Origin: Armatimonadota bacterium
GTDB taxonomy: Bacteria > Armatimonadota > SYMT01
Length of the DNA stretch: 64,000 bases
Direction: 5' to 3'
Assembly (NCBI GenBank): GCA_046292385.1
Contig: JBKBRF010000003.1
Span: 1 to 64,000 of the forward strand
Positions 1 to 10,698 of the stretch are shown one piece after another. Position 1 is the stretch's first letter; each line of letters begins with the position of its first letter. The notes under the pieces were generated by a model. It saw nothing but the letters and a program-made list of their open reading frames with translations, ran no database searches and was not told the origin of the DNA. The translations under genes and the position numbers were made by a program.

Positions 1-150
1 GCCTCCTTCGCGCAAGCGAGCGATGCGGCAAAACCTTCCTGCGCCACCAGCGGCGTAACTTTACAGCGTGTGACACAAGCCACCGCACTCCACAGACTGC
101 ACCGAGGCCGTCTCCCTTTCGGCGAAGAGGGAGGCCCTGCCGGATCGGCT

Positions 151-195
151 TGTGGAGTGCGAATGCTTGCTTTCGCGCCCCGCGTCAGCGGGGCC
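151..195. repeat. Dispersed REP-like element, copy 1
   Basis: TGTGGAGTGCGAATGCTTGC-TTTCGCGCCCCGCGTCAGCGGGGCC recurs at 30727-30790, where it has a 19-bp insert; contains a GCCCCGC/GCGGGGC hairpin. Confidence 0.8.
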
Positions 196-292
196 ACCAG
201 CGCAGCCCCTCGGATTCGCCGATAGTGTCCGCCGCGAGGGGGGCTCATAGGCTCCGGCTCCAGCCCCTTCGTGGGCTTCCGCCGGACACGGA

Positions 293-874
293 TTACGGGT
301 CGGGCGGCCAGAGGAAGTGTCGTATTGGGCCGCCGGGGCGCAGGCGCAGCCAGACGCCGAGCGTGAGGCGGTGCGGGGGCTTCTCCGGCGGGGTGCCGGC
401 CTGGAGCTGGCGGGCGAGGGTCGCTACCGGGTATCGAAAGAGCCGGAGGATCAGCCGGGTGCGCGGGTCCTCACCGCGAAGGCGGGCGGCTTCGCAGCGG
501 GCGAGGTCCTGCACCCAGGCGAGGGCCGGCTCCGCGGCGAGCCCCTCCGCAAAGGCAATCGCGTCCTCGCGGTGCTTCTGCGCACCGGAGGGGACCCGCC
601 GCTGCGCGTGGCGGCGGAAGCGCGGCTCCAGCTCCGCGCCGAGCGCCGCCGCGGTGGCGGGGAGGAGCGCGGTGACGTGCCCGAGCCGCTTGCGGAGCAG
701 CGCGGCGGCGAAGTCGCGCACCTCCTGCTCCGCAAGCGCCGCCAGCCGGGCGGAATCGTCCGGGTCCAGGCCCAGCTCCCGCGCCACCTCCTGCGGCGCG
801 GCGAAGAAGCGCTCTCGCAGCGCCTCGTCGGTGTAGAGGCGCGCGAGGGTGCGCTGCACCTCCGCTAGTCCCAT
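293..874 (-). CDS. Putative MNIO partner protein (193 aa) downstream of DUF692
   Basis: C-terminal part of ORF 293..1783, starting MGLAEVQRTLARLYTDEALRERFFAAP; ATG overlaps the end of the DUF692 gene; resembles helical proteins that follow DUF692 genes. Confidence 0.7.
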   Translation of the reverse strand: MGLAEVQRTLARLYTDEALRERFFAAPQEVARELGLDPDDSARLAALAEQEVRDFAAALLRKRLGHVTALLPATAAALGAELEPRFRRHAQRRVPSGAQKHREDAIAFAEGLAAEPALAWVQDLARCEAARLRGEDPRTRLILRLFRYPVATLARQLQAGTPPEKPPHRLTLGVWLRLRPGGPIRHFLWPPDP

Positions 875-1722
875 CGTCCGTGCCGCCTCCCCAGCTCCCG
901 CGCCCGCTCCAGCTCCGGGAGCAGCTCCGAGAGCGCCGGCAGGCGGGCGTCCCGCTCCAGGATCACGCCCTTTACGGGGGCGCGGCGCAGCACCTCCTCC
1001 AGCAGCTCCCAGACTTCGGGCGGGGTGGGGGCGGCGTGGTCGTCGACCAGCAGCCCGCCGCGCCGGCTGACTCCGACGAAGTGGAGCTGCACTACCCGCT
1101 CCAGCGGGAGCGCGTGGAGCAGCGCATAGGGGTCGCGGCGATGGTTGACACCGTTTACGTAGAGGTTGGTCACGTCGAGCAGCAGCCCGCAGCCGGTCCG
1201 CTCCAGCACCGCGCGGATGAACTGAGCTTCCGTCATCTCCGCGCCGGGGAGTTCCAGGGCGTAGGTGATGTTCTCCAGGATCAGCGGCGCGTCGATCCGG
1301 CTCCGGGCCAGCTCCACGTTGCGGCAGACCGCCTCGACCGCTTCCTCGGTAAACGGGAGCGGCGCGAGGTGGCCGATCTCCACGCCGCCCGCGCGGGTGA
1401 ACGCCAGGTGCTCGCTCCACCAGGGCGGCCGGAGCCGGTTCACCAGCCGGGCGAGCCGCTCCAGGTGCGCCGGGTCGAGCCCCTCCGCGCTGCCGAGCGA
1501 GAGCCCCAGGCCGTGCGGGATCAGCGGGAAGTGGTCCGTCAGCAGCGCCAGCTCTTCGTCTTTCCACGCCGGCACGTCGAGGTAGTGCTCCGCCGTGATC
1601 TCCAGGAAGTCGACCTTCCCCCGGTTCCGGAACAGCTCCGCCCGGAACGGCTCGCGGAAGCCGAGCCCCACGCCGAGCACCGGCAGGTGGGATAGCTCTT
1701 CCGCCGGCGCGACCGCTGACAT
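865..1722 (-). CDS. DUF692 family multinuclear non-heme iron oxidative enzyme (MNIO)
   Basis: Motifs GVGLGFR, DFLEITAEHY, HGLGLSLGS, WWSEHLAF, LILENI, LLLDVTNLY, DDH, ILERD; alternative GTG start at 1734. Confidence 0.92.
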   Translation of the reverse strand: MSAVAPAEELSHLPVLGVGLGFREPFRAELFRNRGKVDFLEITAEHYLDVPAWKDEELALLTDHFPLIPHGLGLSLGSAEGLDPAHLERLARLVNRLRPPWWSEHLAFTRAGGVEIGHLAPLPFTEEAVEAVCRNVELARSRIDAPLILENITYALELPGAEMTEAQFIRAVLERTGCGLLLDVTNLYVNGVNHRRDPYALLHALPLERVVQLHFVGVSRRGGLLVDDHAAPTPPEVWELLEEVLRRAPVKGVILERDARLPALSELLPELERARELGRRHGRWD

Positions 1723-1730
1723 GGTCTGTC

Positions 1731-2726
1731 TCACCCTCCGCCGCAGCCGCCGCAGCCCCCGCCTCCGCAGCCGCCGCTCCCACAGCCGGAGCCGCAGCCG
1801 GACCCGCAGCTCGAGCCGGAGCCGCAGCCGCCGGCCGCCCCGGAGGCGTCGCCGCGGCGGAACATCCCGGGGTAGTAGTCGAAGGCGGTGTCCGTCAGCA
1901 CGCCGACGCCGAAGACGCCGACCAGCACCGGCAGCGCCCGGGTCGCCCCCATCTCGCCCGCCAGGGCGGCCCGCTGCTCCCGGAACGGCTGGTAGGCAAG
2001 CTGCAGCCGCTGGAGGTAGGCGTCGCCCAGGTGGGTCCGCCGCGGCTGCCGGGCGCAGAGCACCGTGAGCCCGACGAACGCGAGGAACCCGAGCAGGATC
2101 AGGAAGCCGACGTTGAAGTGACCGTTCGCCAGCGCGGCGACTAGCTTGTAGAGTCCCAGCCCGCCGATGATCCCCGCGCCGGCAAGCCAGGTCCGCACCG
2201 CCGTGTGCTGCGCTTCTTCCGGCCGCAGCAGCTTCTGTGCCTTCAAGCTCTGCTCGTACCGTGCCGCCAGCGGCTCCACCCGCTCCGGCAGCGCGCCTCG
2301 GAACACCTCCTCCGGTTTCCGTGGAGTGCGGAAGAACTCGAAGATGGTCCGCTCCAGCGGGGAGAGGTCGCGCGGCTCCGGGTGACTCCGGGCGTGGCCG
2401 AGCGCCTGGTCTCCCAGGCTGCGGGTCTTCACGCTAAGCCGGCTCGATTGCGCCTGCTCCTCCGCCAGTGGGACTTCCAGGTAGCCCCGCTGGAGCAGCG
2501 AGAAGACGACGATGCGGATCAGCTCGTTCACCCCTCCGCGCAGGAAGGCCACCTCGTACGGATCCGGGTTCTCCGGCACCTGCAGCGGCTTCGCGCCCTC
2601 GGTCGGGTCGGCGGCCTGCAGCCGGAAGTAGGCCCAGAGCAGCGTGCCGCCGCTCACCAGGGCATAGAGGAGCAGAAAGGCGGGTCCGCGCAGCTCCGCG
2701 AGCGGGTTGTGCAGCAGCCAGTCCAC
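1731..2726 (-). CDS. TIGR04222-type membrane protein with Cys/Gly-rich C-terminal tail
   Basis: GPAFLLLY, DPYEVAFLRGG, several TM segments, tail GGCGSGSSCGSGCGSGCGSGGCGGGGCGGCGGG; GGAGG RBS before GTG at 2726. Confidence 0.85.
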   Translation of the reverse strand: MDWLLHNPLAELRGPAFLLLYALVSGGTLLWAYFRLQAADPTEGAKPLQVPENPDPYEVAFLRGGVNELIRIVVFSLLQRGYLEVPLAEEQAQSSRLSVKTRSLGDQALGHARSHPEPRDLSPLERTIFEFFRTPRKPEEVFRGALPERVEPLAARYEQSLKAQKLLRPEEAQHTAVRTWLAGAGIIGGLGLYKLVAALANGHFNVGFLILLGFLAFVGLTVLCARQPRRTHLGDAYLQRLQLAYQPFREQRAALAGEMGATRALPVLVGVFGVGVLTDTAFDYYPGMFRRGDASGAAGGCGSGSSCGSGCGSGCGSGGCGGGGCGGCGGG

Positions 2727-2817
2727 GTCGGCCTCCAATTCCGCGGAGCCTCGACCGGGATCGTCCGACCGCCTCCCCGGCCTGCTCTGCTGAGTACCGG
2801 AACGGTCCCGCAGGGAG

Positions 2818-2843
2818 AACGTTTCGCCTCCGGCGCCGGTTCA
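2818..2843 (-). promoter_or_regulatory. Possible ECF-sigma promoter of the TIGR04222-DUF692 operon
   Basis: Minus strand TGAACC-N16-CGTT about 90 bp upstream of the start codon. Confidence 0.35.
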
Positions 2844-3018
2844 GCGTTCTTTAAGACTCCGCCACCCCCGGGCTTCCGCCCCCACTCCGGTGGGAGACGC
2901 CGGCTCAGGCGGAGTTGCGCCCGGTTCGCCGGTTGGAAACCCCACATCCGGAGCCTGAAGGTCATCAGCCTCGGGGTAGAGCACCAAACTCGCCGGTTCT
3001 CCACAGCCGGAAACCTGA

Positions 3019-3235
3019 GGCACCCGGAGGGTGCCACCTGTGACGGCCCCTGGGCGTCAGGGGCCGTAGCTCGAAGGCGGCCGAGCCAGCCCGTGAACCA
3101 AGCCATTGGAGCGATGCGGCGCCGCGACGCGGGATGAGCCCTCCGTGACGCACACCCGTAGGGGCCTGCTAGCGTAGGCGAAGCCGGAGCGTGAAAAGGC
3201 ACCGGAGGGCTCGCGTCGCGGGAGGGCTGGCTCGG
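3019..3235. repeat. Cluster of hairpins and nested inverted repeats (REP mosaic or structured RNA)
   Basis: GGCACCCGGAGGGTGCC; ACGGCCCCTG/CAGGGGCCGT; nested pairs 3081-3092/3224-3235, 3122-3131/3212-3221, 3136-3145/3203-3212. Confidence 0.6.
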
Positions 3236-3293
3236 ACGACAAGGGCTCGGGGTCGGCCCTCCGAGGTTCAACGCTGCCCTCAAGAGAACACCC

Positions 3294-4154
3294 TCAGATC
3301 CCGGTCCGAATCCCCTCCTCCGTCAGGTACCCCGTAATCAGCTCCGCCGGCGTCCGGTCGAACTGCACGTTCGCCACCTCCACCCCCGGTGGGGCTTCCG
3401 CCAGCACTTCCGACGGGGGCCCCGGCACCGTCGTGAAGCGCGCCGCCGGGTCGCGCTCGCCCACCCACCGGGAGCGCTCCGCCACCACGTAGACCTTGCG
3501 GCCGTGGGCGGCGCAGACCCGCGCGGCGACGGCGGTCCCCGCGGGGGCGACCACCGCTCCGTCCGGCAGCACCCGCTCCGCCTGGAGCAGCGCCAGGTCG
3601 CACTCCGGCGCGAACAGCTCCAGCTGCGCCTCCGTGATCAGCCGCACCGGCAGCGCCTGGTCCGCCAGCGCCGCGGCGATCGCCACTCCCCGGGAGCGGG
3701 GACGGCCCTCGCTCACCGTCACCGCTTCCAGCCGGTCGGCGAACTTCACGAGCAGCTTCAGCACCGTTTCCTCATGGCCGAGCACCAGGACCCGCGTCCC
3801 CGGCCGGAAGAGGCTCTCCGCCGCCTGCGCCAGCTCTCCGAAAGAAGAGCGGAGCACCGCCTCCGTCTCGGCGAGCGCCGCTTCCCGTCCCCGGCGCAGC
3901 GCCGCCTCCACCCGCTCCAGCGCCTGCGCCAGCGCCGTCGACTCCGACCGGGCCCGCCGCAGCCGCGCCGCGAAGGCGGAGAGCTGCGACCGGACCTGCT
4001 CGGCGTCCGCGTCCGGGGTCCAGGCCTGCTCCAGCGCGGCCCGGAACGTATCGACCGCCTGCCGCACGAGCTGCTCCGAGCCCGCCTCCCGGTTCGTCTC
4101 CAGCTCCAGCGCCTGCAGCAGCCACTCCCGCGGCAGCTTCAGCTCTCCCGCCAT
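3294..4154 (-). CDS. eIF-2B alpha/beta/delta-like (IF-2B family) protein
   Basis: SEGRPRSRG, ERVLPDG..GT, EVANVQFDRTPAELITGYLTEEG. Confidence 0.8.
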   Translation of the reverse strand: MAGELKLPREWLLQALELETNREAGSEQLVRQAVDTFRAALEQAWTPDADAEQVRSQLSAFAARLRRARSESTALAQALERVEAALRRGREAALAETEAVLRSSFGELAQAAESLFRPGTRVLVLGHEETVLKLLVKFADRLEAVTVSEGRPRSRGVAIAAALADQALPVRLITEAQLELFAPECDLALLQAERVLPDGAVVAPAGTAVAARVCAAHGRKVYVVAERSRWVGERDPAARFTTVPGPPSEVLAEAPPGVEVANVQFDRTPAELITGYLTEEGIRTGI

Positions 4155-4290
4155 CCCGGCACCTCCCGTGGTCTGTCGAGCTACTTCTAACCACAGGGGA
4201 CCGGAGCTACGCCTCCAAAGTGCGGGGGCGTGCGACTTCTCCCGTGGCGCCCGCGTCCAAAACGTGACGCCGCCTCAACGGGAGGTCCCC

Positions 4291-6024
4291 GTGCGATCCT
4301 CTGCCCTGCTCCTGCCGCTCCTCGCCGCCGTCCCGCTCCTCTGCGGCAGCCTGCCCGCCGCGGCGCAGGACACCGAGCCGCGCGATAACACGCCGCTTGC
4401 CTACCGCATCCTCGAGGGAGAGGGCGAGAACAGCCTGCTCCAGCTCCTCGAGCGCGGGCTCGAGCCGAACCTGGCGGGACCGGAGGGGACCACGCTGCTG
4501 ATGGCGGCCTCCACCCGCCGGTGGACCCTCGCAGAGGAGCTCCTGCCGCTGCTCGCGGCGGGCGCCGATCCCAACCGGCGGGACCGCGACGGCGAAACCG
4601 CGCTGATCTACGCGGCCCGCACCTTCAACCCGGGTGCGGCGGAGGCGCTCCTTGCGTTCGGGGCGAAGGTTGACGCGCGCGACCGCCGGGGCAGCACCGC
4701 CCTCCACCACTGCGTGAACTGGCACCAGTACGACCTCATCATCGGGGGCCGGAGAGAGCAGTGCGCGGAGGTCGCCCGGCGCCTGATCTCGGCCGGAGCG
4801 TCGCTGACGGCACGGGACCGGTTCGGAATGACGCCGCTGATGTGGGCGGCGAACGCGGAACACGCGCCGGCCCTGGAGGTGCTTCTGAAAGCCGGTGCCG
4901 ATCCGAGCTTCGCCGATCGGAAGGGACGGACCGCGCTCACCTGGCGCGCCTGGGCCGGCCCCGAAGACGAGATCGTCCGGACGCTCCTCGCCGCCGGAGC
5001 GCGAGTGAGCCTCGTCGACGCGCTTCTGCTGAACGATCCGATCCGCGCGCGGATGCTGCTGGACGAAGGTGCTTCTGTCCACGGCGTGGGCGGGGATAAC
5101 CAAACGCCGCTGATGCTGGCGGCGCGGCTGGGGGATCTCGATCTCGTGCGGCGTCTCCTCCGCCGGGGAGCCGACGTGAGGGCCCGAGACCGGAGAGGCA
5201 ATACCGCCCTGATGTACGCCGCGGGCGGGCGGGAAGTGACCGATCAGCTCGGCCAGTCCCGCTGGGTGTCGGAGGGCGCCGACCGTGGCCGGCAGTTCAT
5301 CGTGGAGGCGCTCCTGAAGGCCGGAGTGCCGCCGGACGCCGTGAACAAACAGGGGCAGGATGCTCTCACCTGGATGGTGGGCCTCCGCCAGACCGAGGCG
5401 CTCGAAGCTCTGATCCGGGGCGGTGCTCGCTGTCGAGCCGCATCCGGACGTTACTACCTGCGGTCGAGCTGTGCGCTCGAGGTGCTGTCAGCCCGGGGAG
5501 ACCTGCGGCTGGTGAAGCTGATCCTGAAGCACCGGAACGATCCGCATCTGGATGCCGCGCTCCCTGCCGCGCTCGCCAGTGAGTCCGACACGGAAGCGAC
5601 GATCGCCGCGCTCATCGATGCGGGCGCCGATCCGAACGGGCGCGGTCGCGAGCGCGGTTGGCCGCTCGCGGCTGCGGCGTCCAGCGGCCGGCTGGAGCGG
5701 GTAGAGGAGCTGCTCCGCCGCGGCGCGAAGCTTGGAGCGCGGTCCGGGGCACGGTTGATGGTGGAGGCGGTCCGGAGCGGGAGCGTGGAGATCGTGCGCC
5801 GCTTCCTCACGGCCGGCGTGCCGCCGGACGCGGCGGAACACGACCGGACGCCGCTGATGCTGGCGGCGAGGTGGGGTCGCGAGGAGCTCGTACGGATGCT
5901 GCTCCAGGCTGGCGCCGATCCTACCCGAAACGACAAGCGCGGACGGACCGCGGTTACCGACGCAACGGAAGCCGGTCATCCGGCGATCGCGGCGCTGCTG
6001 CAGGAGGCGATCCGCCGCCGTTAG
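4291..6024 (+). CDS. Secreted ankyrin repeat protein
   Basis: GGAGG RBS plus GTG, signal peptide, many G-x-T-P/A-L-M/H-x-A..LL..GADP repeats. Confidence 0.88.
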   Translation: MRSSALLLPLLAAVPLLCGSLPAAAQDTEPRDNTPLAYRILEGEGENSLLQLLERGLEPNLAGPEGTTLLMAASTRRWTLAEELLPLLAAGADPNRRDRDGETALIYAARTFNPGAAEALLAFGAKVDARDRRGSTALHHCVNWHQYDLIIGGRREQCAEVARRLISAGASLTARDRFGMTPLMWAANAEHAPALEVLLKAGADPSFADRKGRTALTWRAWAGPEDEIVRTLLAAGARVSLVDALLLNDPIRARMLLDEGASVHGVGGDNQTPLMLAARLGDLDLVRRLLRRGADVRARDRRGNTALMYAAGGREVTDQLGQSRWVSEGADRGRQFIVEALLKAGVPPDAVNKQGQDALTWMVGLRQTEALEALIRGGARCRAASGRYYLRSSCALEVLSARGDLRLVKLILKHRNDPHLDAALPAALASESDTEATIAALIDAGADPNGRGRERGWPLAAAASSGRLERVEELLRRGAKLGARSGARLMVEAVRSGSVEIVRRFLTAGVPPDAAEHDRTPLMLAARWGREELVRMLLQAGADPTRNDKRGRTAVTDATEAGHPAIAALLQEAIRRR

Positions 6025-7662: not shown

Positions 7663-9054
7663 CTACTTCCGCTTTCCGGAGCCTTTGGGCGGGCGCATCG
7701 CGCTGCGAGGATCGCGCGGGTTGCCGCGGCCGTTGCGGCCGTCCTTCTTGCCGTTCTCCACGCCCTTCATCGGCTTGAGCGGCGGCGGGGGCGCGGCCTC
7801 CAGAGCAGCGGTCCCGCCGCCGCCCCCGGCAATCGCGTGCAGCCCGTAGCGGCGCATCAGGCTCCAGCTCTGGTAGCCGCTCACCACGTTCAGGATGAGC
7901 CAGTAGAGCATGAAGGCGGACGACCACTGGTAGATCCACATGAAGACGCCGAACATCAGCGGCATCATCACCATCATCATCTTCTGCTGCTGCGCCTGCT
8001 GCGGGTCGGCCGGCTTCGGCTGCAGGAGCGAGAAGGCGACCATGCTCAGCATGTAGATGATGAAGAGCGGCAGGTCGAACTGCGCCAGGTTGTCACCCAG
8101 CCACGGGCTGTTCTTCGAGGCCGCGGAGCCGATCCACAGGAAGGTGCCGTGGGTGAACTGGAACTCGTAGTCCGCCACCATCCAGTAGACCGGGAAGATC
8201 ACCACCATCATCACCAGCATCGGCAGACAGCCGGCGGCGATGTTGACGTTGTTCTCCTTGTAGATCTCGAAGACCCGGCGCTGCACCTCGTCCGGCGGCG
8301 CGTTGCGCGCCTTCATCTCTTCCTGGGCCTCTTTGATCAGCGGCGCCACGCGCATCATGTCGCGCTGGTACTGGTACTGCTTCTTCTGGAACGGCCAGGT
8401 GATCCCCTTGAGGAAGACCACCACCACCAGCAGTGCCAGGAAGTAGCTGAGGCCGGGATAGCGGACGCCGCCGAAGACCTGGACCAGCCCGTCGAGGATC
8501 CTGTAGGTCCACTTGTCTTTGTTGACTTCGTCCCGCGCCAGGCGGATCAGGTTGAGCCGCTCGGAGGCGATCTGGCTCAGATCGCCGGTGCGGGTCTCGG
8601 TCTTGCCGTTGATCTCCAGGGTCACGGTGCCCTGCTTGTTGTGCAGGGACTTCTCCATGTCTTTGAGCTTCGGGATCGCCTGGTCGTGCCAGTGCGTGCC
8701 GGAGCGCTTCCCCTCGAGCTGCGTGGCGAGGTAATCGTAAATATTGACCTGCTGGAACCGCGCCTGGTAAGCCTCCGGCGGCACCGGGTTCTTGTCCTTC
8801 TGCTGGTTCCAGTACTCTTCGTACTTGCCGACCGCGGCTTCCAGCTTCTTCACCCGGTCCGCGATCGCCACGTTCGGATCGGCGGTGCGGCCCTCCTTCT
8901 CCAGGTTCTGGGCCTGGATGTAGAGCGACGGCGCGTTCGGGTCCGGCGGCGCGGGCGCCTTCGGCATGAAGAAATAGAAGCCCGCCATCAGCACCGCGTA
9001 CATGATGATGAAGTTTATGAAGCGGCTTCTGTTAGAGGGCTGCGGTTGTGCCAT
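7663..9054 (-). CDS. yidC: Membrane protein insertase YidC
   Basis: YKENNVNIAAGCLP, FLWI..NLAQFD, LYW; synteny with rnpA and yidD. Confidence 0.92.
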   Translation of the reverse strand: MAQPQPSNRSRFINFIIMYAVLMAGFYFFMPKAPAPPDPNAPSLYIQAQNLEKEGRTADPNVAIADRVKKLEAAVGKYEEYWNQQKDKNPVPPEAYQARFQQVNIYDYLATQLEGKRSGTHWHDQAIPKLKDMEKSLHNKQGTVTLEINGKTETRTGDLSQIASERLNLIRLARDEVNKDKWTYRILDGLVQVFGGVRYPGLSYFLALLVVVVFLKGITWPFQKKQYQYQRDMMRVAPLIKEAQEEMKARNAPPDEVQRRVFEIYKENNVNIAAGCLPMLVMMVVIFPVYWMVADYEFQFTHGTFLWIGSAASKNSPWLGDNLAQFDLPLFIIYMLSMVAFSLLQPKPADPQQAQQQKMMMVMMPLMFGVFMWIYQWSSAFMLYWLILNVVSGYQSWSLMRRYGLHAIAGGGGGTAALEAAPPPPLKPMKGVENGKKDGRNGRGNPRDPRSAMRPPKGSGKRK

Positions 9055-9151
9055 TCCTGTTTAGACTCGTCTCAGAATAATGCCCGTCCACGCCAGCGGA
9101 CGGGCTCGATCCGCACCGGCGCGGGCTGCGCGCTCGGGCATGGGTAAAAAC

Positions 9152-9394
9152 CTATCGCACGGGATCGTAGCCGCCCTTGCAGAGCGGCTGACAGCGGCAA
9201 ATGCGGGTGAAGGCCATCCAGGACCCTTTCAGCGCCCCGTGTTTGCGGATCGCCTCCAGCGCGTATTGGGAGCAGGAGGGGACGAACCGGCATACCGGCG
9301 GCCGCCAGCGGCGGGTGCTCTGGTAAAGACGGATCAGCCCGATGAGTGCGCGCGCGCCCAGGCTTCCCGGGCGGGTTTCCGGCGGCATACTCAC
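9152..9394 (-). CDS. yidD: Membrane protein insertion efficiency factor YidD
   Basis: [36 protein letters not shown]. Confidence 0.93.
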
Positions 9395-9431
9395 GTGGCA
9401 CCTCCCTCTCCGCGGGCGCGTCGCGCTCTCC

Positions 9432-9836
9432 TCATCGCGGCCGGCGGTGCCCTGGCGCCCCGGCCGGCATGATATAGAGCGCGTCGGGGGCGGCGTCTGG
9501 TTCCCGCGGCAGTCTCGCGCGCCGGGCCAGCTCCCTGACTGCGGCTTCCAGCTCCGCGAATTCGGCCTCCGCCGCCGCGGAGCGGGCCACCAGGACCGCG
9601 TCGAAGCCCTGCTTCCATTCCGGGAGCAGGGCCCGCACGATCTCCCGCAGGCGGCGGCGGACCCGGTTGCGGACCACCGCCTTGCCGACCTTCTTACTGA
9701 CGGCAATGCCCATCCGCAGACCGGATGGGCGGGGATGCACGTGCAGAGCTGCCAGCGGGTGCGCCCAGGAGCGCCCGCCCCGGTAGACCTGCTGAAACTC
9801 CCGCGTCGAGCGCAAGCGATGGTCTCGCGGCAGCAC
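9432..9836 (-). CDS. rnpA: Ribonuclease P protein component
   Basis: [42 protein letters not shown] (RNR motif). Confidence 0.95.
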
Positions 9837-9871
9837 CCGTACACCTCGCGGGAGTTGGCTGGCTCGGCGGC

Positions 9872-10012
9872 CTAGCCGGAAACCGTCAGGCGCTTGCGGC
9901 CCTTGGCGCGGCGCGCCGCGAGCACGTTGCGGCCGTCGCTGGTCGCCATGCGCTTGCGGAAGCCATGGACGCGCTTGCGGCGGCGGTTGTGGGGCTGAAA
10001 AGTTCGCTTCAT
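9872..10012 (-). CDS. rpmH: 50S ribosomal protein L34
   Basis: Hand translation [46 protein letters not shown]; not in the ORF track. Confidence 0.97.
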
Positions 10013-10037
10013 CTAATTCCTCTCCCTGCGTCGCGTG

Positions 10038-10066
10038 ATTATAGCACAGGGGTAAGGGGGCCACAA
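10038..10066 (-). promoter_or_regulatory. Sigma70 promoter of the rpmH operon
   Basis: TTGTGG-N17-TATAAT with TGn extended -10. Confidence 0.65.
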
Positions 10067-10215
10067 GCGCCGGGCGGCGCCGTCGCGCGCCGGGAGCCGG
10101 GACCACTCCGCTCCTTCTAACGGGGCAGGGACGCCCGGGGATACGCCCGAAGATGAACTCGAGAGGGCGGGACTCCGTCTGGACCGGTAGCAGAGGGCGA
10201 AGAGAGAGTGCCGAA

Positions 10216-10698
10216 ATGCCGCAAAGAACCGAGCTGCGGGTGAATGGCGAGCGCCGGGTGATCGACGTCGACCCGGAGCGGAGCCTGCTGAGCGTGCTGC
10301 GGGACGACCTGGAGCTGACCGGGGCCAAGTACGGCTGCGGCGAGGCCCAGTGCGGCGCCTGCACGGTGGTGATCGACGGCCAGGCGGCGCGGTCGTGCGT
10401 GACCCCGGTCTCCGCCGCGGCGGGGAAGTCGATCACCACCATCGAGGGGCTGGCCGGCGGCGAGGCGCTGCACCCGCTGCAGGAGGCGTTCATCCAGGAA
10501 GATGCGCTCCAGTGCGGCTACTGCACCACCGGGATGATCATGTCCGCGTACGCGCTGCTGCGCCGGAACCCGGAGGCTACGGAGGCGGAGATCCGGAAGG
10601 GGCTGCAGGGCAACATCTGCCGCTGCGGGATTTACTCGCGAGTCGCGAAGGCGGTGCGCGCCGCGGCGGAAGCGATGCCGAAGGAGGAGAAGCGATGA
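10216..10698 (+). CDS. (2Fe-2S) small subunit of a xanthine dehydrogenase-family enzyme (IorA-like)
   Basis: GAKYGCGEAQCGACTV, QCGYCTTG, NICRCG. Confidence 0.93.
   Translation: MPQRTELRVNGERRVIDVDPERSLLSVLRDDLELTGAKYGCGEAQCGACTVVIDGQAARSCVTPVSAAAGKSITTIEGLAGGEALHPLQEAFIQEDALQCGYCTTGMIMSAYALLRRNPEATEAEIRKGLQGNICRCGIYSRVAKAVRAAAEAMPKEEKR

Follow-up and report, generated by a model that had tools for sequence, protein, structure and literature searches.

A three-gene cassette at the start of a contig

The subject of this analysis is a group of three genes at the left edge of a 64-kb stretch of DNA from an Armatimonadota bacterium (assembly GCA_046292385.1, contig JBKBRF010000003.1). This stretch, hereafter the window, opens contig 3 and covers its first 64 kb, window base 1 being the contig start; the source genome is 7.0 Mb in size and 98% complete. 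In the order of transcription the genes encode a TIGR04222-type membrane protein with a Cys-rich C-terminal tail, an enzyme of the MNIO (DUF692) family and a smaller partner protein (Table 1). An earlier note, made from the sequence alone, had described three overlapping or nearly overlapping co-oriented genes, and they lie on the minus strand just where it had placed them. The stop codon of the membrane-protein gene (1733-1731) abuts the GTG of the MNIO gene at 1734, or sits 8 nucleotides before the ATG at 1722, and the ATG of the partner gene overlaps the 3' end of the MNIO gene by 10 nucleotides. The GC content of the region is 70-77%. Across the whole genome the MNIO and TIGR04222 families are matched once each, by the two adjacent genes of the cassette.

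Table 1. Coordinates of the cassette genes and associated features in the window
Feature	Position	Strand	Length or basis
TIGR04222 membrane protein	1731-2726	minus	331 aa from GTG 2726; 335 aa from TTG 2738
MNIO (DUF692) enzyme	865-1734	minus	289 aa from GTG 1734; 285 aa from ATG 1722
Partner protein, TglI-like (PME-type 2)	293-874	minus	193 aa; AlphaFold2 model and structure matches
C-terminal Cys/Gly/Ser tail, proposed substrate	1734-1853	minus	residues 296-335 (335-aa numbering)
Semi-conserved pre-tail motif	1854-1895	minus	alignment of homologues
Upstream intergenic region, ~570 nt	2727-3293		open reading frame list, Rfam, promoter/terminator scan

No separate precursor gene is visible in the window, as the earlier note had stated; downstream of the partner gene 292 nucleotides are readable before the contig edge. 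The upstream intergenic region contains no credible gene, RNA family or consensus promoter that we could detect: a 209-residue open reading frame (ORF) at 2654-3283 has no Pfam match, an Rfam search of positions 1-3600 returned nothing relevant, and a promoter/terminator scan of the same segment gave 0 sites.

The membrane protein and its tail

The product of the first gene matches the NCBIfam model TIGR04222 with 101.1 bits (cut-off 43) over profile positions 3-228 of 229, and there is a weak match to Pfam DUF2207_C (21 bits). The GTG at 2726 is a likelier start than the first TTG at 2738, because translation from the GTG yields MDWLLHNP, which corresponds to the N-termini of the homologues (alignment A2), and because a GGAGG lies 5 nucleotides upstream; position 2726 is also where the earlier note had ended its interval. 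The protein has three robust transmembrane (TM) helices, a soluble domain of about 140 residues between TM1 and TM2, and a disordered tail. The mean pLDDT of the AlphaFold2 (AF2) model is 83.2, with residues 296-335 below 50. A Foldseek search with this model gave nothing at E <=0.001, the top rows, proteins of the GPP34 family (Vps74/GOLPH3), having E values of at least 0.6. The structure comparison with VIA gave only generic helical-bundle matches, and we draw no fold assignment for the soluble domain.

A low-complexity Gly/Ser/Cys region follows the TIGR04222 domain. The last 33 residues are exactly those quoted in the earlier note; they contain 7 Cys, all flanked by Gly or Ser, and end in CGGCGGG, so that the description of a TIGR04222-type membrane protein with a 7-Cys tail holds in both its parts. 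Near the C-terminus C329 and its flanking Gly are invariant across 18 homologues (alignment A2). The tail is preceded by a motif, T-x-F/Y-D-Y-Y-P-x-M-F in the window protein and G-T-x-Y..F/Y..F in the homologues, which we infer may be a recognition segment. Since low-GC cyanobacterial homologues bear the same kind of tail, the tail is, on this comparison, not a by-product of the 72% GC content. The strict tail pattern is rare: it was found in 24 of 2100 ORFs in one set of loci and in 34 of 2347 in another, the metagenome set described below.

The MNIO enzyme and its partner

The earlier note had proposed profile searches with PF05114 and TIGR04222, and both families match above their cut-offs. 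The MNIO matches PF05114 (MbnB_TglH_ChrH) with 299.9 bits (cut-off 25) over profile positions 1-261 of 263. The nearest NCBIfam models are BufB (NF050167, 250 bits, cut-off 310) and HvfB (NF003818, 218.7 bits, cut-off 360), those of ApyH, ChrH (45.5 bits) and MbnB (34.5 bits) scoring much lower. Matches to proteins of known structure include 3bww (E 8e-37, 130 bits), TglH 8hci (E 4e-27, 98 bits) and MbnB 7dz9 (E 5e-10). Nine positions (H74, H109, E154, D187, N190, H218, D231, H233 and E260) are invariant in 20 homologues (alignment A3) and identical at the aligned residues of MbnB 7dz9, 3bww and TglH; we take them to be iron ligands. The recognisable metal-ligand motifs of the earlier note agree with these alignments. 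Judged by these scores and alignments the enzyme is a bona fide MNIO on the BufB/HvfB side of the family and an equivalog of neither. It falls below the cut-offs of both models, and its gene context is not that of BufB either: the upstream gene encodes a TIGR04222 protein and the partner belongs to no Pfam family, whereas BufB is accompanied by a DUF2282 or Buf_6/12Cys precursor with a Sec signal and by a DUF2063 protein.

The partner, whose length of 193 residues had been correctly given, has a helical domain at its N-terminus and, after it, a small domain of beta-sheet. It matched no Pfam family at E values up to 0.01, and there was no match to DUF2063. Its AF2 model, built on 15 homologues, has a pLDDT of 92.8. 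The model retrieved TglI (8hi7_A) in Foldseek with E 3.8e-6; the matches in VIA were TglI (8hci_C, Z 12.6 over 186 of the 193 residues), NGO1945 (3dee, Z 9.7) and MbnC (7dz9_C, Z 6.4). As modelled, the partner has the fold of TglI, which accompanies the MNIO TglH. Its gene follows the MNIO gene directly, and the structure is TglI/NGO1945-like without DUF2063; 'PME-type 2' is the label used for such partners in the text of Antoine et al. (2025, Microb Genom, PMC12452194). Residues 5-59 weakly match leader models of the NHLP/Os1348 type (28.2 bits, cut-off 40), and the N-terminus also resembles nitrile hydratase alpha (E 0.00097) and, in VIA, Os1348 (Z 7.6). The partner contains a single Cys. 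We considered the possibility that the partner is itself the precursor and did not adopt it, reading the leader-like N-terminus as a small helical motif common to the TglI-like fold. Prediction of a complex between the MNIO, the partner and tail residues 280-335 returned a score of 0.00, which speaks neither for nor against binding.

Conservation of the cassette

A scan of one genome per species yielded 28 MNIO loci. Twenty of these form a close set, with an MNIO 53-67% identical to that of the window, and the remaining eight are more distant. Represented among the close loci are Planctomycetota, Cyanobacteria, Armatimonadota, Acidobacteriota, Verrucomicrobiota and methanotrophic Alphaproteobacteria. 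In 19 of the 20 the gene directly upstream encodes a TIGR04222 homologue and ends a few bases from the MNIO start; at the exceptional locus (L006) the contig ends 54 nucleotides before the MNIO gene. A homologue of the partner is found directly downstream in all 20. All 20 upstream proteins, one locus having two of them, end in Cys/Gly/Ser tails with 3-10 Cys. Judging by this arrangement, the three genes stand as a self-contained unit with translational coupling in 19 of the 20 close loci.

Clustering of the ORFs of at least 80 residues revealed no further gene family common to several lineages; what it grouped were antisense shadow ORFs and genes specific to Methylocystaceae. A small-ORF search of the regions flanking 19 cassettes found no conserved small Cys-containing precursor. 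Three of the eight distant loci (L022, L027 and L028) served as a positive control, as they show separate KCG-repeat precursors just upstream of the MNIO gene. The earlier note had also suggested a comparison of neighbourhoods; here the same three genes recur, with no hidden small precursor conserved beside them. Measured by strict criteria the cassette does not qualify as a gene cluster for a peptide made on the ribosome and modified after translation (RiPP): no small precursor, protease or exporter is conserved in the 19 loci, and the candidate substrate is a membrane protein of 331 residues. The distribution of the cassette is patchy, an MNIO homologue being present in two of six other genomes of the window's family and in none of 24 sampled elsewhere in the phylum.

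Two further observations concern these loci. The KCG-type precursors of the distant MNIOs (37-44% identity), at L022:3508-3906, L027:3280-3510 and L028:3578-3829, belong to the known oxazolin/EGKCG class. Tandem TIGR04222 paralogues lie upstream of the MNIO gene in two loci (L049:437-2592, minus strand, and L019:1843-3978); the enzyme-adjacent copy in L049 has no tail Cys and the copy further upstream has 6, while in L019 both copies have Cys tails.

The tail on other carriers and beside another enzyme

To see the tail in a wider context it is useful to turn to a sample of 301 genomes of the window's phylum, 22 of which have a TIGR04222 protein above the cut-off. The MNIO cassette is present in five further genomes of this sample. 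Another genome (G004), from the same family as the source of the window, has the MNIO and partner genes preceded by a gene for a 365-residue protein that is not of the TIGR04222 type and carries the same Cys-Gly tail (L033:2396-3493, minus strand). This protein matches no Pfam family and has no hydrophobic span (maximum hydropathy 1.16), and so, as its sequence is read here, the carrier of the tail need not be a membrane protein.

A second type of enzyme accompanies the tail elsewhere. Fifteen genomes of the sample, to which we return below, have tailed TIGR04222 proteins without an adjoining MNIO gene. In three of them the carrier is of the short form, like that of the window, and orthologous radical S-adenosylmethionine (SAM)/SPASM enzymes are encoded next door or one gene away. 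A fourth genome has this enzyme encoded after a different, small membrane protein, which bears the same tail and whose N-terminus is zinc-ribbon-like. This uncurated radical SAM/SPASM family (L063:4333-6538, L064:4194-6192, L065:5409-8197, L072:5719-7643 and the metagenome loci L075-L118) has best NCBIfam matches of 118-143 bits, all far below the respective cut-offs; the window has no orthologue.

A metagenome scan with the radical SAM alignment gave 80 loci, in which we counted hydrophobic tail-bearing ORFs on the same strand beside the enzyme. Such an ORF is present in 18 of 31 loci with an enzyme score of 430 or more, in 6 of 15 with scores of 330-430, and in 3 of 34 below 330; contig ends truncate many of the other loci. 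Among the carriers linked to the radical SAM enzyme are short and long TIGR04222 forms as well as single-span peptides of 48-100 residues, and one of them is 41% identical to the window protein over 297 residues, that is, as close as the MNIO-linked homologues. Carrier size ranges from 48 residues in single-span peptides to over 600 in TIGR04222 proteins while the tail stays constant. The final 14 residues contain CGGC in 22 of 26 MNIO-linked, 23 of 28 radical-SAM-linked and 12 of 12 enzyme-less carriers; the Cys are flanked by Gly or Ser throughout, and tail statistics do not separate the three groups. Because the tail recurs while carriers and enzyme types vary, the comparison identifies the tail, and not the carrier domain, as the constant element beside the MNIO and radical SAM enzymes. 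Repeated swapping of enzymes is not claimed: a quick tree of 47 carriers needs 5 label changes, of which the well-supported branches force 1.

DUF2207-like relatives of about 600 residues (L057, L058 and L059) have Gly/Ser/Phe-rich tails without Cys, finishing in GGGGSW, and for this reason Gly-rich tails seem to be an older feature of the superfamily, of which the Cys version is a variant. In one family the radical SAM/SPASM gene is followed by a nucleotidyltransferase-like gene with a weak match to PF01909 (L065:6321-7061, minus strand, and L073:3304-4050). At L065 this gene sits between the radical SAM/SPASM gene and the Cys-tailed carrier; at L073 it is the last gene before the contig end, and immediately upstream of the radical SAM gene is one for GPP34 (PF05719), the family to which the weak top Foldseek rows of the window's membrane-protein model also belong.

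Membrane topology

The hydrophobic spans of the window protein are at residues 20-38, 185-203 and 210-228, and there is a weaker fourth stretch at 263-286. Summed over 18 homologues, the 15 residues after TM3 contain 63 Lys+Arg and 13 Asp+Glu, the N-terminus 11 and 25, and the segment after TM1 42 and 28, respectively. This positive-inside pattern of charges indicates an N-out protein with three spans, in which the 140-residue soluble domain and the region after TM3 are predicted to be cytoplasmic. Taking charge and hydropathy together, we think that the tail probably lies on the cytoplasmic side, which would offer a simple explanation of how a cytoplasmic enzyme reaches it.

This topology disagrees with the published one, as periplasmic tails were predicted in the text of Antoine et al. 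(PMC12452194), and that prediction is right if the fourth hydrophobic segment does span the membrane. The tail would then be modified in the cytoplasm and subsequently moved to the periplasm or the cell surface, where it would buffer metal as bufferins do; according to the same text bufferins and oxazolins act outside the cytoplasm. The fourth segment, with a hydropathy of 1.78 in the window protein, is indeed borderline for a membrane span. However, its maximum 19-mer hydropathy in the 18 homologues (0.38-1.82, as compared with 1.43-2.91 for TM1-TM3) falls below 0.6 in four of them, too polar to span, and AF2 renders the segment as two short helices (268-276 and 278-281). Moreover, the tail of the minimal carriers comes straight after their last span, which has Lys or Arg at its flank. 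A signal peptide is absent from the membrane protein, and in the account of PMC12452194 signal-peptide-less precursors are correlated with partners of PME-type 2. We therefore regard the periplasmic arrangement as the clearly less likely of the two, without calling it far-fetched.

Comparison with described systems

The closest counterparts of the window locus are the TIGR04222-MNIO-'PME-type 2' clusters of Antoine et al., which, as described in the main text (PMC12452194), have the same three components in the same order, an MNIO close to the bufferin and oxazolin enzymes, and an NGO1945/TglI-like partner without the DUF2063 signature. The MNIO substrate proposed in that text is likewise a Cys-rich segment, found at the C-terminus of a subset of TIGR04222 proteins. 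That set is mostly from Actinomycetota, whereas the subfamily of the window spans six other phyla; we see no essential difference otherwise, and by its sequence the window locus is a typical member of a described class known from bioinformatics. The tail as substrate is thus a published bioinformatic hypothesis, and the gene association is also in print; the remark in the earlier note that the association is recognised and its chemistry not established agrees with this source. Our literature search, with subscription journals outside its scope, returned no experimental study of TIGR04222 tails and no description of a pairing with radical SAM enzymes. The main text of PMC12452194, figures and supplements being outside the scope, has 0 occurrences of 'SPASM' and 'rSAM' and does not mention a soluble carrier. 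As far as these searches show, the cytoplasmic-tail reading, the soluble carrier and the radical SAM/SPASM pairing are additions.

It is instructive to compare the cassette with the characterised MNIO systems. Like the bufferins (BufA/BufB/BufC), it has an MNIO nearest to BufB and Cys residues as likely targets; for the bufferin clade, thiooxazole formation and chelation of copper are the chemistry with the best support (PMC12452194). Bufferins, however, are made from small Sec-exported precursors (DUF2282 or Buf_6/12Cys) with a DUF2063 partner (PME-type 1), whereas the window has the tail of a signal-peptide-less membrane protein, a TglI-like partner and an enzyme score below the BufB cut-off of 310. 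The oxazolin/HvfABC systems and the EGKCG 'captophorins' also have repeated short Cys-Gly motifs, and in them one MNIO makes many modifications and the product binds copper; their motifs are Lys/Glu-rich (EGKCG), their products secreted and their partners of the DUF2063 type, while the window tail consists almost purely of Gly, Ser and Cys. With TglHI (3-thiaglutamate/pearlin) the cassette shares the fold of the partner over its whole length and the match of the MNIO to TglH given above. TglH excises the beta-carbon of a C-terminal Cys added to a carrier peptide, whereas the window tail ends in Gly and the enzyme is nearer to BufB and HvfB. Methanobactin biosynthesis (MbnABC) likewise combines an MNIO with a partner, which there turn Cys into a copper-binding product, and all nine metal-site positions align; it is distant nevertheless, as seen from the low score with the MbnB model, from MbnA being a small secreted peptide and from MbnC being a partner of a different type.

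The radical SAM/SPASM enzyme SbtM converts the Cys of a Gly-Cys motif to a thiooxazole, as stated in the text of PMC9204691. SbtM is among the best NCBIfam matches of the tail-linked radical SAM/SPASM enzymes (118-133 bits, cut-off 350), which match it no better than other SPASM families (ACGX, NirJ), so these scores indicate no specific relationship; the window itself has no enzyme of this kind.

A proposed function and its alternatives

On the whole we consider it fairly probable that the three genes are a maturation cassette in which the MNIO and its partner modify the tail of the membrane protein. The MNIO would be an O2-dependent multi-iron oxidase of the cytoplasm and would act in a heterodimer with the TglI-like partner. 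Its targets would be the Gly/Ser-flanked Cys in the disordered C-terminal tail of the co-translated TIGR04222 protein, which would already be anchored in the membrane when the enzyme reaches its cytoplasm-facing tail, and the product would be a string of Cys-derived 5-thiooxazoles giving the tail the capacity to bind a soft metal such as copper. The parts of this scheme do not deserve equal trust. That the tail is modified seems to us probable; the strongest evidence for this here is the occurrence of one tail on unrelated carriers beside two unrelated maturase families. A thiooxazole is the most likely product because the nearest characterised relatives are BufB and HvfB, yet by analogy this assignment can only be tentative, and the binding of a metal by the tail is possible on a similar footing. 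The thiooxazoles of bufferins, derived from Cys in the BufB clade, chelate Cu according to the text of PMC12452194.

Several points weigh against this interpretation. Fifteen genomes of the phylum sample have TIGR04222 proteins with CGGC-ending Cys-Gly tails and no MNIO gene adjoining; PF05114 was found nowhere in 14 of them, and the remaining one has a 28.8-bit fragment elsewhere. Twelve of the fifteen, all with long-form carriers, are also without the radical SAM orthologue. The tail, being kept in 14 genomes with no MNIO match, is not strictly dependent on this enzyme, and where it is kept without either enzyme it may work unmodified. The scores below the BufB and HvfB cut-offs and a TglI-like partner in place of a DUF2063 protein mean that the chemistry could differ from thiooxazole formation. 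The IF-2B, ankyrin, YidC, YidD and RNase P neighbours give no hint of metal homeostasis, and the published periplasmic topology, discussed above, belongs among these points as well. The suggestion of the earlier note, in which the MNIO modifies the Cys-Gly repeats of a full membrane protein, has, in sum, gained comparative support, with the reservation that the tail persists without an adjoining MNIO in these 15 genomes; the metal-binding or redox role that the note gave to the tail is conjectural.

The alternatives differ in how much of this evidence they accommodate. It is conceivable that the tail is the substrate and the chemistry another one, such as TglH-like beta-carbon excision, formation of an oxazolone-thioamide, cross-linking or an undescribed oxidation. 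The partner fold is closest to TglI, the partner of the carbon-excising TglH, the MNIO remains under both equivalog cut-offs, and diverse chemistries are known among MNIOs (table in PMC12452194). Against this, the enzyme is nearer to BufB, HvfB and 3bww (250, 218.7 and 130 bits) than to TglH, ChrH and MbnB (98, 45.5 and 34.5 bits), and every tail Cys is in a Gly/Ser-Cys-Gly/Ser context resembling the EGKCG motif and the Gly-Cys motif of SbtM; we consider a different chemistry rather unlikely. A reading in which the tail works unmodified, for instance by holding metal through its thiolates or by serving as a flexible linker of Gly, and the MNIO and partner act elsewhere, the membrane protein being a scaffold, anchor or exporter, would account for the 15 genomes just mentioned, for the Cys-free tails of L057-L059 and for the statement in the text of PMC12452194 that one third of TIGR04222-bearing genomes have no MNIO genes. 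It would leave unexplained why no alternative substrate gene is conserved beside the cassette, why the sole MNIO gene and the sole TIGR04222 gene of the window genome are adjacent, and why the element recurring beside both types of enzyme is the tail and not the carrier domain, and for these reasons it strikes us as quite improbable. Least probable, and in our opinion very much so, is that the membrane protein is an oversized leader whose tail, once modified, is cleaved away to give a small free product derived from Gly and Cys. Such a release would follow standard RiPP logic and would fit a constant tail on carriers of 48 to over 600 residues; yet the cassette has no conserved protease or exporter, and no cleavage motif is evident.

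Returning to tail modification by the MNIO, a more ambitious extension can be formulated: the Gly-Cys tail would be a portable module, borne by many different proteins that are mostly anchored in the membrane and in one case or more soluble, and serviced both by the O2-dependent MNIO and by the unrelated, O2-independent radical SAM/SPASM enzyme. The two would be an isofunctional aerobic/anaerobic pair, both making the same thiooxazole, with the product tethered at the cytoplasmic face of the membrane and not secreted. There is a precedent in SbtM, which makes a thio(seleno)oxazole at a Gly-Cys motif (PMC9204691, in its text). Since the radical SAM enzymes described here resemble SbtM no more than they do other SPASM families, convergence of the two enzymes on one product is a hypothesis, and the extension as a whole seems unlikely at present.

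To our knowledge, the MNIO substrates characterised so far are without exception small, either peptides or secreted proteins. If the proposal is true, this class would add the tail of an integral membrane protein to what MNIOs modify. Through the comparison a hunch drawn from gene neighbourhood becomes a testable design, with a substrate that can be reduced to the tail of about 50 residues. Natural minimal versions exist in the single-span peptides of 48-57 residues beside the radical SAM enzyme, and one substrate would allow a comparison of both enzyme systems. If thiooxazoles were the product of both, an aerobic and an anaerobic route would clearly have converged on a single protein modification; should the tail be cytoplasmic, no intracellular member tethered to the membrane would have preceded it in a group hitherto tied to periplasmic or extracellular copper handling.

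Neighbouring genes

The cassette's neighbours in the window encode an IF-2B family protein, ankyrin repeats, YidC, YidD, the RNase P protein and a molybdopterin enzyme. We do not count them as part of the system, having found no link to the cassette; the neighbours vary from locus to locus. The YidC, YidD and RNase P protein genes are clustered at 7663-10493 on the minus strand, about 5 kb from the cassette, and an ORF of 842 residues with ankyrin repeats (3496-6024, plus strand) lies between the cassette and this cluster.

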